DNA of 64,000 bases from a virus. Its lineage: Duplodnaviria; Caudoviricetes. The notes beneath the pieces are model-generated. The model saw nothing but the letters and a program-made list of their open reading frames with translations. It did not search any database and had not been told where the DNA came from. Made by a program: the position numbers and the translations under genes. Numbering within the stretch: the first letter of the stretch is position 1; the number at the start of each line of letters is the position of its first letter. The stretch is taken from the IMG/VR virus record IMGVR_UViG_3300025708_000007, positions 26,968-90,967 of that record; one strand, 5' to 3'. This document shows positions 3,134 through 43,448 of this stretch, in pieces.

Positions 3134-3205
3134 TGAAAATCATTTTTTATAAATACTCATTTCTATTTAAATAGCATTAGTATTTATATTAAATTCCAGT
3201 ACGAA

Positions 3206-5053
3206 ATGAATTTAGAATGCTTAAACGACATAATTACCGACAATTTGGCAATACACATTGATTTAACTAACATTAAATCATGGATTGATTGGAATACGGG
3301 TTTAACTGCATTTAGCTTAACCAAATGGGCAGGTGCAATTTCAGACAATATTAATCTTATTGATTTCGGTTTAACTGGTTTCGATAACGGAAGAACCGAT
3401 ATTATATGGAGCGGATTTACATTAACACCCAACGACACATTATTTTCAATGCACAGGGTTGGTTATAATGAAGTACAAAACCCAACAACCGGACAAACAA
3501 GTGGTATTACGGTAACAACGGAATATCTTCCAATGAGCGCAACTTCAGTAACTGGTGGTACTTCAAATTATTTTGATTTGGCAGGTGGTTATTTGCAAGG
3601 ATTCTTTAAATTGAATGGATTTAATTATCAATTGTTTCCGGCACGCTATAATACGGGTATTACGATTGAAACACTATTATATCTATATCCAGATTCAGAA
3701 GGTATTTTCTTAATGATGGGTGCTCGTGCAGAAGACAAATATAATCCATATTTTTCTGGCGAAACAATGACAGGTATAACAACAACTGGCGTAACAACAA
3801 GTTTTGATAATTACTTGGATGCAATTCAGGAAAATCAAACAATAAAGAGTGGATTTGGTGTTTTTGAGGAAAGAATGGAAGTTACATATTCACAACCCAA
3901 TCCGCTCGATAACATAAAAAATAATGTAATTGCTTTCGAATTAACTGAAGACAAGCATTTGGCTTACAAATATATCAATAAAGACGGCTTAATTGTAACA
4001 AACGCTTCGGGTGCAATAATTGAAAGAACTGGTTTTACATGGATTACAATAACATTCACACCTGATTCAATAATCGAAGACCCGGATTTGCTTGAATGCG
4101 CAAAACAAAGAACTGGCAAATTAAAATTCTTCGTTAACGGACGCAGTGTTTGGACAATTAACGAATTCCCCGAATTTTATTTTAAAGCACTTATTAATGA
4201 CAAAGAAAAACAAATAGGTGTCCCATATTCAATTAGCTGGGGCGGTGGTTCATTTGGCTTAAAACATTCATGGCATTATGATTATCAAACATACGAATTA
4301 TATACGGGACAAGACACAGCATACATTGAAAATAATTTCTTTGTTGAAGCAAATCCAATTCCGGCAGAATGTTATATTCCCCCAACAGGAAGCACATATT
4401 TAAGTGGTTTATCGTTAAGTGCTGACAGTCAAACATTTTATGGCGTTGATGAATGTAATCCAATGGTAATGATTCCAATGACAGTAATGCGCATTGAATT
4501 TACTGGTACAACGGGAAATTCATATTATATCAAATATAATCATCCTGTTTCAGTTTTATCAAACAGGGATTGTGTAGTTGAATTGTCGGTATTTGATGCT
4601 GGTTTCTTCAGAATCGGTGCAACCAAAAAAATATCAATATTGCCATACGGTAATGTTGACGTTAATATTATCAGCGAAACAGTATTTGATTCTGGTTTTG
4701 GTATGTGGAAACCATTGAAATGTGTATTCAGAATAAATGATAATACTGGTCAGCAATTCATCAACATTGGAATATTAATCGAATCCAGTGATACTTTTAA
4801 TGCCGATGTACCGTTATTTGTAACCGGGTTTGGTTATACTGCAGCAGACATATTAGTACAAGACCCAAGAAAAAACAACCTAACAATAGAGCAAAATTTT
4901 GATTCAGCATTTATCGGTGGAATCCAAAAATTGAGGATTTACGATAATGCGTTAACATCATCTGAAGTATTACATAATATATATTGGGAAACGAAAAACA
5001 ACCCATATCAAAATATTGTTGTAAGTAAGGGTGGTAGAATTATCTATCGTTAG
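3206..5053 (+). CDS. Putative virion structural protein with C-terminal LamG/ConA-like domain
   Basis: Thr/Gly-rich 615-aa ORF ending FIGGIQKLRIYDNALTSSEV. Confidence 0.6.
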   Translation: MNLECLNDIITDNLAIHIDLTNIKSWIDWNTGLTAFSLTKWAGAISDNINLIDFGLTGFDNGRTDIIWSGFTLTPNDTLFSMHRVGYNEVQNPTTGQTSGITVTTEYLPMSATSVTGGTSNYFDLAGGYLQGFFKLNGFNYQLFPARYNTGITIETLLYLYPDSEGIFLMMGARAEDKYNPYFSGETMTGITTTGVTTSFDNYLDAIQENQTIKSGFGVFEERMEVTYSQPNPLDNIKNNVIAFELTEDKHLAYKYINKDGLIVTNASGAIIERTGFTWITITFTPDSIIEDPDLLECAKQRTGKLKFFVNGRSVWTINEFPEFYFKALINDKEKQIGVPYSISWGGGSFGLKHSWHYDYQTYELYTGQDTAYIENNFFVEANPIPAECYIPPTGSTYLSGLSLSADSQTFYGVDECNPMVMIPMTVMRIEFTGTTGNSYYIKYNHPVSVLSNRDCVVELSVFDAGFFRIGATKKISILPYGNVDVNIISETVFDSGFGMWKPLKCVFRINDNTGQQFINIGILIESSDTFNADVPLFVTGFGYTAADILVQDPRKNNLTIEQNFDSAFIGGIQKLRIYDNALTSSEVLHNIYWETKNNPYQNIVVSKGGRIIYR

Positions 5054-7156: not shown

Positions 7157-7564
7157 ATGAAATATCCTAAGATAATAAAACGTTGTCCTATTTGTGATAA
7201 AGAATTTGAAACAAAATCGGGACACCCCAAAGAAAAAACAGTTTGTTCACATTCTTGTGCAAACACATATTTTCGGTCTGGAACTTCAAATCCTAATTAC
7301 AAAAATGATGATGAATTAACTGGTGTTGCGAAATACATTAGAATTTGTTTTCGATATCATCCTAAAAAATGCGTCTGCTGCAATGAAACAAATATTGTGG
7401 AAGTGCATCATTATGATAATAATAAAGAAAATAATTCACCCGAAAACTTAATACCTTTATGTCCAACACATCATCAATATTGGCACAGTAGATTTAGACA
7501 TTTGATTAAAACAAAGATTGATAAATATATTGTGGAATTTAAAAAAAATTTTATCGGGGTGTAG
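7157..7564 (+). CDS. HNH endonuclease
   Basis: CVCC...VEVHHYD...NSPENLIPLCPTHH; stop codon lies inside the next tRNA. Confidence 0.8.
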   Translation: MKYPKIIKRCPICDKEFETKSGHPKEKTVCSHSCANTYFRSGTSNPNYKNDDELTGVAKYIRICFRYHPKKCVCCNETNIVEVHHYDNNKENNSPENLIPLCPTHHQYWHSRFRHLIKTKIDKYIVEFKKNFIGV

Positions 7565-7627
7565 CGCAGTTGGTAGCGTACCTGCTTTGGGAGCAGGGGG
7601 TCGTCAGTTCGAGCCTGACTACCCCGA
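7555..7627 (+). tRNA. tRNA-Pro(TGG)
   Basis: CCTGC TT TGG GA GCAGG. Confidence 0.9.
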
Positions 7628-7629
7628 CT

Positions 7630-7704
7630 GTGTTAGATGAAGATATTGGTTCTCTTCGCCTGATTGTGACTCAGGCTTCTGCGGGTTCGATTCCCGTCTA
7701 ACAC
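7630..7704 (+). tRNA. tRNA-His(GTG)
   Basis: CCTGA TT GTG AC TCAGG; G-1:C73. Confidence 0.85.
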
Positions 7705-7712
7705 CTAATTAT

Positions 7713-7785
7713 TGTCTCGTGGTGTAACGGCTAACATGGCTGACTCTGACTCAGGAGATTGCAGGTTCGAATCCTGCCGAGACAA
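7713..7785 (+). tRNA. tRNA-Gln(CTG)
   Basis: CTGA CT CTG AC TCAG; T1:A72. Confidence 0.9.
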
Positions 7786-7789
7786 CAGT

Positions 7790-7883
7790 GGTGACAGATA
7801 TAAAAAACTGCACGAGAAACAGACACGAGTGGGTTAAGAGTTGTTTTAATACCCGCAATGGTTGCCAGTACCTAATGTCACCC
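7790..7883 (+). ncRNA. Unassigned 94-nt structured RNA, copy 1
   Basis: Near-identical copy at 12760-12853 with compensatory changes. Confidence 0.75.
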
Positions 7884-7887
7884 AAAT

Positions 7888-7970
7888 TGACCTCTGGCAG
7901 AATGGTTATTGCATCGGTCTTTGAAGCCGACACCCTTTGTGGTTTACAGGTTCGAGTCCTGTGGGGTCAA
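7888..7970 (+). tRNA. tRNA-Gln(TTG) with long variable arm
   Basis: TCGGT CT TTG AA GCCGA; ~14-nt variable region. Confidence 0.8.
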
Positions 7971-18154: not shown

Positions 18155-18527
18155 GGGGCAGTTTGGTTTTGACAGCATGCTTGAATGGTATGTAAGCAAG
18201 TCGTAGTTTGAGCAACACTACGTAAAAACAGGTTCAAAACAATAAATGCAGAGGATATAATGTCCATTCCTACTTCTCTAACGAGAGGTCGCTTATTTGT
18301 AGAGAGTGCTGAACTCGCAATGGTAGCGTAAGGAAGCAGCAAACGCAGCAAAAACCTTCCAAATAAACCCATCTCGATGGAACTTGTTATTTTAACAGAG
18401 AGATAAGGAAGTAAAATAAAACAGTGGATAAAAAATAAATGTTTTGCTGATTTAGAAAAATCAGATAAACTTGTAGAAAACGTATTGGGCACATGACTGC
18501 ACACGGGTTCGAATCCCGTCTGCTCCA
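18155..18527 (+). ncRNA. ssrA: tmRNA
   Basis: GGGGCAG / CTGCTCC-A acceptor with G3:U70, stemless D region, T arm, resume context TAAAT-GCA and a tag ORF ending AMVA. Confidence 0.9.
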
Positions 18528-18552
18528 CTAAAACATTTAAAACATTGAAATT

Positions 18553-25328: not shown

Positions 25329-26423
25329 ATGAAGTTAAATTACAAAATATTAGAAAAGGTCGATTGGAAAGTCTTGCAGACTTACATTGATAACAGTCTT
25401 ATTGTCGCAAATAAGCATCCAGAATATGACATTTGGATATTGAACTATTCACCAAAAGTTCAATCTAAGAAATTCTGGGATGAATATACTTTATCTGCAC
25501 GTGGACTCGTTATTGATGCAGAGGGTAATATTGTTGCACGTCCATATCAGAAGTTCATGAACCTTGAAGAACATGACCCAGCAGACATTGATATGTCTCA
25601 GGAATATGAGGTTTTTGAAAAGGTAGATGGGTCATTAATCATCCTTTTCTATTACGAACCACGTATGCAATGGATTTTTGCTTCAAGAGGCTCATTCATT
25701 TCAGAACAGGCATTGGAAGCACAGAAAATGTTCAACCACACTGTTCAGGAAAAAATGAGTTCAAAATATACTTATTTGTTTGAAGTCTTATATCCAGAAA
25801 ACCGTATTGTGGTTGATTATGGTAGCAGAAGGGAACTTGTGTTACTTGGAAAAATGAACACCACTACGGGTGAAGAATGCCCATACGAATATCTTGTTGA
25901 CAAATATTCAAAGCATTTTACTGTCGTGAAAAGAATTGACGTAAGACTCGATAATTTATCCGAATTAAAAAGGCTTGAAGAAGACAACAAGGAAGGGTTC
26001 GTGGTGAGATTCAAGAACGGTTTCAGGGTTAAAGTCAAATTTAACGAATACGTTAGATTGCATGGTATTCTAACAAATGTTTCAAACATAACTGTTTGGG
26101 AACATTTGGTGAATAACTACAATTTTGACCAGTTACTTGACAGAGTGCCAGACGAATTTTATGGTTGGCTACAAAGAGTCGTAGCGTCATTGCAAGGAAA
26201 ATACGATGAAATTGAAAAAGAATCGTTGAAAGAATTCGTGAGAATTTACCACACCAATGGTATTATTGAACGTAAGGATTTTGCAATGGAAGCTTTGAAA
26301 TCGGACTACCGTTCGATTCTTTTCAAAATGTACGACAAAAAACCATATGAATCGATAATCTGGAATATGGTGCGTCCTGTATATAGTAAGCCATTCAAGG
26401 ATGGTTTCGAATATAGTATATAA
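25329..26423 (+). CDS. T4 Rnl1-type RNA ligase
   Basis: KVDGS motif I, EGFVV motif IV, RVKVK. Confidence 0.88.
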   Translation: MKLNYKILEKVDWKVLQTYIDNSLIVANKHPEYDIWILNYSPKVQSKKFWDEYTLSARGLVIDAEGNIVARPYQKFMNLEEHDPADIDMSQEYEVFEKVDGSLIILFYYEPRMQWIFASRGSFISEQALEAQKMFNHTVQEKMSSKYTYLFEVLYPENRIVVDYGSRRELVLLGKMNTTTGEECPYEYLVDKYSKHFTVVKRIDVRLDNLSELKRLEEDNKEGFVVRFKNGFRVKVKFNEYVRLHGILTNVSNITVWEHLVNNYNFDQLLDRVPDEFYGWLQRVVASLQGKYDEIEKESLKEFVRIYHTNGIIERKDFAMEALKSDYRSILFKMYDKKPYESIIWNMVRPVYSKPFKDGFEYSI

Positions 26424-41372: not shown

Positions 41373-41444
41373 GCGAGATTAGCTCAGTGGTAGAGCACGA
41401 CTTTGCCAAAGTCGGGGTCGTGGGTTCAAATCCCATATCTCGCT
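41373..41444 (+). tRNA. tRNA-Gly(GCC)
   Basis: CGACT TT GCC AA AGTCG. Confidence 0.92.
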
Positions 41445-41495
41445 CAATTTTGTAACATTTTTAAATTTTTATTCGTATAATGAGAAAAACTTAAT

Positions 41496-41801: not shown

Positions 41802-41953
41802 TGTGGTTATACAAAAATCGACTACCCCGCCACACAAAAAAATAACACAGAGGATTCATCGCTTATAGGACATTTTATAGGACAAAGTGTCTCATAAGAG
41901 GAACTTCAGAACATCGCTTTTATTAAAAATCATTGTATTTATAATAAAAAACT

Positions 41954-42577
41954 ATGGCAAAATATTATCATAAGTGTTCAATATGCAATAAAAGAGTAAA
42001 AAGAAAAAAACCAAATTTTAATGGTAAAATAATTTGTAATCCTTGTAAGAAAAATGAAAATACTGTAAAATGTTTATGTTGTGGAAAATATTTTAAAAAA
42101 AGAGTTTCTAAACGTAAATTTTGTTCACGAGCATGTTCTGGAAAATATCTTGGTGAGCATACATTAAAAGGTAGAAAACTTTCAACAATTACAAAAGAAA
42201 AACTTTCAAAAATTGCATCTGGAAATAACAACGGAATCATAAAAACCAAATATTATAAAATATTTTCACCACATATGAATAAATTTGTTGCCGTTCAGGG
42301 AACATATGAATTGAAATATGCTAAATATCTTAATGAAAATAATGTTGATTGGATAAGGTCAAAAGAAATTTCAATGCAATATAAAAAAGCCGATAATGTG
42401 ACAAGAAATTATTTTCCAGATTTTTATCTTCCAAATACAGATGAGTATATTGAAATTAAAGGATATTTTTTTCCTAAAGATAAAGAAAAAATGAAATTGG
42501 TTCAAAAACAAAATAACAATAAAAACATTCGGATTTTATTTAAAGAAGACTTGGAAAAACTAAACATTATTTTATAG
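41954..42577 (+). CDS. NUMOD3 plus TnsA-like PD-(D/E)XK endonuclease
   Basis: GRKLSTITKEKLS; YFPDFYL...YIEIKG. Confidence 0.8.
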   Translation: MAKYYHKCSICNKRVKRKKPNFNGKIICNPCKKNENTVKCLCCGKYFKKRVSKRKFCSRACSGKYLGEHTLKGRKLSTITKEKLSKIASGNNNGIIKTKYYKIFSPHMNKFVAVQGTYELKYAKYLNENNVDWIRSKEISMQYKKADNVTRNYFPDFYLPNTDEYIEIKGYFFPKDKEKMKLVQKQNNNKNIRILFKEDLEKLNIIL

Positions 42578-42787
42578 ATATTCATTATAAGTGAGTAGTA
42601 GCGTGTATTTTACATGAGAAAACTCCGAACACCGTTGCTGGACGCAGGAGACCTAAACAGTCGTTAATACTGCGGAGTGGTGCAAGCCAAATAGACTTAG
42701 AGGGAAAGCAACTCAGTGATAGTCGGGTTGGTGCATTAGATAAATTACTACATAAAGCAGAATTCGGGTTACGGCTGTAATGAATAT
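42578..42787 (+). ncRNA. rnpB: Minimal RNase P RNA candidate
   Basis: P1, P2, P3, P4 with bulged U (AAC-U-CCGAA / TTCGGGTT), GCAAGCCAAATAG, TAGATAAAT and GCAGAATTCGGGTTAC conserved-region motifs in the correct order. Confidence 0.75.
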
Positions 42788-42864
42788 TTATAAAATTCTG
42801 GGTACGCTCACGTTATTTTTATTTTTTTTGTAACATATTCAAATTTATTTCGTATATTTGCCGA

Positions 42865-43182
42865 ATGGAAAATGAATTATGGGAAATATTAGTCCCTGCG
42901 TCAAACAATAAAGACCAGAAATTCAGCTTTGAACACCACAAAGCATGGGATGCTTTTGTAAAAAAGACAACTGGTGGTGTTACAATAATGAAAACAGCCA
43001 AAGGTCAGTGGGTTAGTCCTACTGGAAAACTTTATATTGACAGAATGATACCCTGCAGAATTGTTTGTACTGAAGAACAGATGTCAGAGATTATTGACTT
43101 TACACTGGAACACTATAATCAGGAAGCAGTTCTGGCTTACAGGATTTCAACGAATGTAATTTTACGTTATAAAAATAAATAA
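42865..43182 (+). CDS. Hypothetical protein
   Basis: 105-aa ORF. Confidence 0.65.
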   Translation: MENELWEILVPASNNKDQKFSFEHHKAWDAFVKKTTGGVTIMKTAKGQWVSPTGKLYIDRMIPCRIVCTEEQMSEIIDFTLEHYNQEAVLAYRISTNVILRYKNK

Positions 43183-43184
43183 TC

Positions 43185-43448
43185 ATGAAACTTTATCATT
43201 TTAATCACAATGGCTATGGTGAAGAATTTTATGTAATGGCAGAAAATAAAATTGATGCACATAAATATCTTCTTAAATATCTACAAGAAAAAATTGATGA
43301 CCCAAGAAATCATGTCTATAAAAGCATGTATAAACAAGACCTAAATGATTGGATAAATGTGAATCCAGAAGACCCAGATACTTTTCCAAGTTCGTTTACT
43401 TTAGACGAATATGAGGAAGGTTTTGTTATTCAATCAGAAGTGGCTTGA
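43185..43448 (+). CDS. Hypothetical protein
   Basis: 87-aa ORF. Confidence 0.6.
   Translation: MKLYHFNHNGYGEEFYVMAENKIDAHKYLLKYLQEKIDDPRNHVYKSMYKQDLNDWINVNPEDPDTFPSSFTLDEYEEGFVIQSEVA

Follow-up and report, generated by a model that had tools for sequence, protein, structure and literature searches.

RNase P RNA appears in textbooks as a universal ribozyme and is thought of as cellular. Engineered constructs consisting of its catalytic domain alone cleave precursor transfer RNA (pre-tRNA) at high salt or with protein, and a relaxed choice of substrates is established for them. In this study we describe a 210-nucleotide (nt) RNA gene at positions 42578-42787 (+ strand) of a 64-kb window, the whole stretch of DNA that was analysed, which lies within a 90,967-bp IMG/VR virus record (IMGVR_UViG_3300025708_000007) judged to be 28% complete. 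Judging from homology and covariation, the encoded RNA is a phage-borne and structurally conserved homolog of bacterial type-A RNase P RNA. An initial annotation had proposed a phage-encoded, minimal RNase P RNA with a reduced specificity domain at this site, and this identity is supported by a global Rfam match, by covariation in all helices and by the position of the gene in a tRNA array. That annotation had overlooked the remains of an older, split copy within which the gene lies, and the endonuclease gene beside it.

In comparison with bacterial type-A RNase P RNA (M1 RNA of E. coli, encoded by rnpB; Rfam family RF00010) the window RNA shares helices P1-P6 and P15-P17 in the same order, as well as the P4 pseudoknot with its bulged U, the P6 pseudoknot, the GGU of loop L15 and the joining regions J5/15, J15/2 and J2/4. 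It differs in being phage-encoded, in its length (210 nt compared to about 350-400), in the replacement of P7-P14 by a 32-nt hairpin and in lacking P18. Reduced RNase P RNAs have also been described in cells, among them those of bacteria of the candidate phyla radiation (CPR), which lack P12-P14 and P18, and those of Mycoplasma fermentans and Thermoproteaceae (PMC8172020). What the window RNA has in common with these cellular RNAs (type T of Pyrobaculum and the Thermoproteaceae, M. fermentans, CPR) is that specificity helices are shrunk or lost while the catalytic core is kept, and that lowered search thresholds are needed to find them. However, theirs are the sole and essential RNase P RNAs of a cell, whereas the window RNA is an extra one that is carried by a virus and descends from bacterial type A, and it is more strongly reduced than the CPR cases described. 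Engineered catalytic-domain-only RNAs retain the same part and show that such an architecture can be catalytically competent; the window RNA differs from them in being natural, in being under selection and in keeping a conserved stub. A poxvirus RNase P-like RNA bears a partial structural likeness and showed no pre-tRNA cleavage in vitro (PMC3001073). Both it and the window RNA are virus-encoded, but in the phage family the full catalytic-domain structure covaries. Full-text literature searches turned up no description of an RNase P RNA encoded by a phage, and the paper on huge phages (PMC7162821) makes no mention of RNase P.

A second comparison concerns the endonuclease gene. T4-like phages have free-standing homing endonuclease genes that lie within conserved genes or split them, one example being the tRNA region of T4. 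Our locus resembles these cases in having a NUMOD-type endonuclease gene next to or inside a conserved gene, and a block of high identity with diverged flanks. It differs in that the invaded gene is a ribozyme gene, the function of which was seemingly kept by importing both halves of a matching helix shell.

Detection and structure of the RNA

The search with RF00010 (bacterial class A RNase P) that the initial annotation had suggested gave, in a 551-nt search with laxer filters, a global match of positions 42582-42787 to model positions 1-367 with 48.7 bits and an E-value of 5e-14. The annotation had also warned that standard models may miss the RNA, which is what we observed: the whole-window Rfam search at gathering thresholds returned tRNAs and the transfer-messenger RNA (tmRNA) only, the whole-window scan at E <= 0.001 listed no RNase P, and the Rfam scan of the record's own genome gave no RNase P match. 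Since the 551-nt search recovers the RNA, the whole-window misses are a filter effect and not an absence. A mini RNase P RNA that is widespread in phages would show standard annotation to have a blind spot. The minimum-free-energy fold of the single sequence was no better than that of shuffles (z -1.05), the two pseudoknots not being modelled. As two pseudoknots make a lack of energy signal expected, folding energy was dropped as evidence, and support for the RNase P identity thus rests on homology and covariation.

The drawn structure of the inner RNA has 62 canonical pairs, with 124 of the 210 positions paired and every helix fully canonical; all landmarks listed in the initial annotation were found at their places. 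P1 (42578-42589 with 42776-42787) has 12 bp plus three inner pairs and could be extended to 42571-42795. It is followed by P2 (42595-42600 with 42746-42751; 6 bp) and the P3 hairpin (42602-42616). P4 forms 8/8 pairs between 42621-42623 and 42625-42629 on one side and 42763-42770 on the other, with U42624 bulged, and the altered P4 signature that the annotation had pointed out is a G-to-C change compensated in the pair C42623-G42768. P5 lies at 42630-42633 and 42679-42682, P15 at 42686-42688 and 42730-42732, P16 at 42694-42697 and 42721-42724, and P17 at 42700-42702 and 42712-42714. The P6 pseudoknot, a hallmark of type A, joins 42635-42639 to 42707-42711 in loop L17 with 5/5 pairs. The GGU of L15 is at 42726-42728, and P4 is flanked by the conserved stretches J3/4 and J2/4, the latter (42752-42762) standing directly 5' of the 3' strand of P4. 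P6, the assignments of P15, P16 and P17 and a two-stem stub are additions of the present analysis, and the presence of P6, P16 and P17 argues for type-A ancestry. Hence all features of the catalytic domain are kept (P1-P6, P15-P17, the bulged U of P4, J5/15, the L15 GGU, J15/2 and J2/4).

Little is left of the specificity domain. The T-loop-binding module was lost with P7-P14, and the stub that stands in their place (42643-42674) has an outer stem (42643-42647 with 42670-42674) and an inner stem (42650-42652 with 42660-42662). The specificity domain had been put at about 45 nt, which is the distance between the two P5 strands; 9 of these 45 nt are P6 and joints, and the stub proper has 32 nt. 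P18 is absent, as had been noted, and one or two hairpins are found in its place in about a third of the relatives.

Relatives and covariation

When the 15-nt 5' strand of P4 was used as a probe, 42 matches were obtained, of which 41 were chance matches and one was a true relative, L031, a 275-nt version of the RNA. BLAST against deposited phages led to another relative, L043, in the published 642-kb phage genome LR756502.1. A phage genome of this size is one of the four largest listed in PMC7162821. Both relatives are matched by RNase P models. In the loop of the stub the window and L043 have the same 17-mer (42647-42663), and searching with it yielded RNase P-like genes in 5/6 viral-contig matches and 45/63 metagenome matches; among 185,579 species-representative prokaryote genomes 0/10 matches were RNase P-like. 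In many contigs the family lies within a tRNA array or next to one.

For the analysis of covariation, 30 distinct phage and metagenome sequences (set A3) were aligned with MAFFT from the 5' strand to the 3' strand of P4, the boundaries of the relatives being set by algorithm. Canonical pairs fill 98.6% of 1037 pair cells, compared to 25-45% after sliding the partners by 1-3 columns, and 27/35 pairs show changes on both sides, a number reached by 0/500 shuffles. Lack of covariation in P4 had been named beforehand as an argument against an RNase P RNA; 6/8 P4 pairs covary in the 30 relatives. With 98.8% of its cells paired, P4 is the one helix whose percentage is inflated by the rule for entry into the set (at least 7/8 P4 pairs by the parser), a rule that affects neither double changes nor the other helices. 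The P6 pseudoknot covaries in 4/5 pairs with 100% of cells paired, P5 in 4/4, the outer stem of the stub in 4/5, P15 in 3/3, P16 in 3/4 and P17 in 3/3. The L15 GGU is invariant in all 30 sequences; the 17-mer of the stub is likewise invariant, in its case by construction. According to an alignment-free parser, 30/30 relatives have a P1 of 6 bp or more, a P3 hairpin and a P2 of 5 bp or more, the last with 21 distinct strands.

Pairwise comparisons point in the same direction. Between the window and L031, P1 keeps 12/12 pairs despite 7 double changes and the pairs of P2 are kept despite one. Between the window and the 96%-identical L080 there are 7 differences in the RNA, made up of six unpaired positions and one loop-closing pair (binomial p about 0.02, calculated by hand). 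A captured, dead fragment of bacterial origin was rejected in view of the covariation of the helices and of these recent differences, which avoid paired positions.

A probe that leaves out the stub (L15, the 3' strand of P15 and J15/2) found RNase P-like genes in 16/18 matches. Among these relatives the hairpin in the middle is variable, with GNRA-capped versions and versions of about 110 nt, and the unpaired flanks persist, namely a purine-rich strand before the hairpin and a U/A-rich strand after it. These two conserved strands may resemble the elbow-reading joining regions of full-size RNAs, a likeness that we offer as a lead only. In L135 (- strand, about 7187-7457 in reversed coordinates) a shell of the type seen in L053 is combined with an L031-like specificity module of about 110 nt, so that module size is polymorphic among near-identical alleles. 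All four combinations of shell type and module size were found among close relatives. The phage mini RNA might serve as a natural minimal ribozyme of bacterial type for probing the need for a specificity domain.

Several relatives have two copies of the gene. L047, with about 27 tRNA genes, carries a decayed first RNase P RNA copy and then a complete second copy of another subtype, as well as a GOLLD RNA (191.6 bits); the places concerned are 3202-3405 (- strand), an upstream relic near 3476, and 7430-7900 (- strand). L085, L089 and L099 show this layout too, and L062 and L075 probably do so, their parse being anomalous in the same way.

A double-shell mosaic next to an endonuclease gene

The RNA gene is directly preceded by an open reading frame (ORF) of 207 amino acids (41954-42577, + strand) with a PD-(D/E)XK domain, whose stop codon abuts the RNA gene. 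The protein matches Pfam PF05367 with 33.5 bits (cut-off 29.1) and PHROG 945, an endonuclease, with 2.2e-13, and NUMOD3 with 17.7 bits, below the Pfam cut-off of 20.4. From its domains the ORF is likely a homing endonuclease gene; the traits of such genes found at the locus are the nuclease domain, the sub-threshold NUMOD3, presence/absence polymorphism and a block of high identity. In L080 the ORF is intact, with 15 synonymous and 8 non-synonymous codon differences. A search for close relatives of the protein in viral contigs found none, and Rfam gave no match to a group I intron enclosing the inserted genes, either in the window or in L108.

Comparison of alleles shows how the gene is put together. 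L053, L070 and L105 have an RNase P gene in one piece, with a different shell and a long P3, and L108 has the same allele in split form. L053, which lacks the endonuclease gene, shows synteny with the window to either side. In the window, an outer and older 5' shell of this resident type (41836-41913, + strand), comprising the 5' strands of P1 and P2, the P3 hairpin and the 5' strand of P4, can be aligned to the genes of L070 and L105 at their 5' ends, and its P3 folds at -10.4 kcal/mol. The outer 3' shell with the 3' strands of P4 and P1 (42792-42820, + strand) is 96.6% identical to L070:745-773. Between the two halves lie, in this order, the endonuclease ORF, the inner 5' shell, the core and the inner 3' shell. 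The inner 5' shell matches that of L031, and the core matches the resident allele at 86-93%.

Each shell is consistent with itself. The outer one forms 9/10 plus 3/3 pairs in P1 and 8/8 pairs in P4, with 42796-42803 as the 3' strand. When the strands of P4 are combined, inner 5' with inner 3' and outer 5' with outer 3' each give 8/8 pairs, whereas inner 5' with outer 3' and outer 5' with inner 3' each give 6/8; the outer 5' strand of P2 forms only 2/6 pairs with the inner 3' strand. As the shells are self-consistent and mutually incompatible, both halves of the inner one had to arrive together. Comparison with these alleles thus shows the RNA gene to be a mosaic, in which the resident allele was split after the 5' strand of P4 by the endonuclease gene and the resident core stands inside a shell pair from another allele, with the old halves left outside. 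The double-shell mosaic around an RNase P RNA gene is new in this analysis. A 999-bp block (41822-42820, + strand) is shared with L080 and L100 at 96% identity (blastn), and since its flanks reach 70-79% it seems to be a recently exchanged mobile block.

Endonuclease genes were also found inside or next to the RNase P genes of other contigs. L108 has a GIY-YIG/NUMOD3 gene (Pfam) at 1520-2170 between the 3' strands of P2 and P4, and in L142 (5523-6146; 4571-5284) a similar ORF with GIY-YIG and NUMOD3 motifs, as seen by eye, lies inside the RNA gene. In L136 (7754-8164, - strand) and L137 an ORF with an HNH motif, again by eye, ends just before the P17 region. The genes in L108, L142 and L136 occupy different sites, and none comes with a duplicated shell. 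It might be, although we would not put this at quite even chances, that at this locus a selfish endonuclease gene and a ribozyme gene have been in conflict, with RNA structure dictating the repair, and that mini RNase P genes are modular (shell, core, specificity module) and a recurrent target of homing. Under such a conflict, rescue would be possible only by importing two non-adjacent shell halves of another allele, because P1, P2 and P4 need matching 5' and 3' strands, and would leave a functional ribozyme gene between the separated halves of its predecessor. The double-shell mosaic offers a natural experiment on helix compatibility and on the coexistence of selfish endonucleases and structured-RNA genes.

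Proposed function and alternative explanations

We consider it probable that this conserved, type-A-derived RNA is made in infection and trims phage pre-tRNAs together with the protein RnpA, and that its mosaic gene could fold again through the imported shell pair. After the endonuclease gene had split the resident allele, the import of a matched shell pair would have restored a foldable ribozyme. During infection the RNA would be made and would join RnpA, which would come from the host or be encoded by the phage in the 72% of its genome that has not been sequenced. Together they would remove the 5' leaders of the tightly packed pre-tRNAs that the phage itself encodes, with substrates being recognized mainly via acceptor stem, leader and 3' end and not via the T-loop. 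As far as the sequence can tell, processing of phage pre-tRNAs by the mini RNase P RNA is plausible, a preference for atypical ones being conjectural. The window holds 50 tRNA genes and one tmRNA gene, all on the + strand; the RNA gene lies within this array on the same strand, and some of the tRNA genes are spaced by only 4-6 nt. If a half-size RNase P RNA were indeed widespread in phages, viruses would carry their own catalyst of tRNA 5' maturation beside tRNAs, tmRNA and RNA ligase.

As to the protein partner, LR756502.1, the genome that holds L043, encodes a full-length RnpA in which an RNR-type motif is intact (PF00825, 53 bits, profile positions 4-104 of 109). Its gene (L123:1498-1800; 525189-525473) is about 90 kb away from the mini RNase P RNA gene. 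Relatives of RnpA were also found in L124 and L125, both of them viral contigs. Four metatranscriptome libraries of activated sludge yielded contigs that are identical to the window and span the gene (41951-42779, 42005-42777, 41957-43439 and 42573-42862); the gaps they leave at 41918-41950 and their breaks near 42777-42784 are weak hints at best.

Some observations weigh against the proposed role. The 48.7 bits of the window RNA fall below the RF00010 gathering cut-off of 100 bits, and in the alignment the rule for P4 and the built-in invariance of the 17-mer have to be borne in mind. The search for rnpA in the 91-kb record (28% complete) gave no match, nor did that of two partial relatives; these records are fragments, and the misses therefore say nothing about absence. 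The metatranscriptome contigs attest presence only, since they give no ends, strand or level and might reflect DNA carry-over. The three letters 3' of the discriminator base (for example 41445-41447 after the tRNA at 41373-41444) are CCA in only 4/47 tRNA genes, which does not sit easily with an invariant L15 GGU, the motif that binds the 3' end of tRNA; CAA stands there in 27/47, and this shared CAA may be a 3'-processing or repair signal. Moreover, the outer shell has barely decayed, with 1 difference in 107 nt compared to L080, and because the decay is so slight the outer shell may still matter.

The last point leads to an unlikely explanation in which the outer shell and the shared core form the working ribozyme, and the endonuclease gene with the inner shell is a tolerated insert, or the RNA is assembled from pieces. 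The outer strands of P1, P2, P3 and P4 are still complementary and little diverged from L080, and L108 and L142 do carry a GIY-YIG gene within the RNA gene without a duplicated shell. However, such a ribozyme would have to accommodate an insert of 717 nt between P4 and P5 and another of 34 nt before the 3' strand of P2, whereas the inner shell is contiguous, 100% paired and has kept P1 through the 7 compensatory changes relative to L031. To this may be added, as a weak argument, that in three RNA-library runs no single contig bridges 41918-41950, which separates the outer 5' shell from the remainder of the locus.

Could the RNA be a decoy instead of an enzyme? Having kept the face that binds RnpA, a non-catalytic RNA might soak up host RnpA or pre-tRNA and thereby block the maturation of host tRNAs. 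The lost specificity domain, the failure to find rnpA in the 28%-complete record and the precedent of the poxvirus RNase P-like RNA that is inactive in vitro (PMC3001073) would all suit this. Yet the positions needed for chemistry and docking (the bulged U, J5/15, the L15 GGU, P6) are invariant or covarying, which goes beyond protein binding, a relative with its own RnpA suits an enzyme better than a sponge, and the phage itself needs about 50 pre-tRNAs processed. Hence we regard a decoy as improbable. We give as little credence to an active RNase P-type ribozyme that acts mainly on substrates other than tRNA, such as tRNA-like or hairpin RNAs, the precursor of the phage tmRNA or host RNAs. 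The tmRNA gene and several odd tRNA-like genes in the window would be candidates, and loss of the domain that reads the T-loop should relax substrate choice, but the family sits with tRNA arrays in many contigs and nothing points to another target. We thus favor a ribozyme with the inner shell that acts with RnpA on the pre-tRNAs of the phage.

Genomic setting

The window has a G+C content of 33%. Besides the tRNA genes it encodes the tmRNA (18155-18530, + strand; Rfam 105.7 bits), a homolog of T4-type RNA ligase 1 (25329-26420; phrog_562, 237 bits), a ribonucleotide reductase gene and a DNA-polymerase-like gene. RNA ligase, tmRNA and RNase P RNA together in a tRNA-rich region look like a toolkit for tRNA maintenance. 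The RNA gene is bounded by the ORF ending at 42577 and by an ORF of 105 amino acids (42865-43179) on its 3' side; the latter is kept next to the RNA gene in both L031 and L053 and belongs to phrog_3543, of unassigned function. A promoter-like motif recurs at 41452-41481, after the tRNA ending at 41444, and at 42830-42858, after the RNase P locus, and a TAnnTTTG-like box stands a few bases 5' of P1 in several relatives. Both the motif and the box we take to resemble promoters of Bacteroidota, and they may hint at the host.
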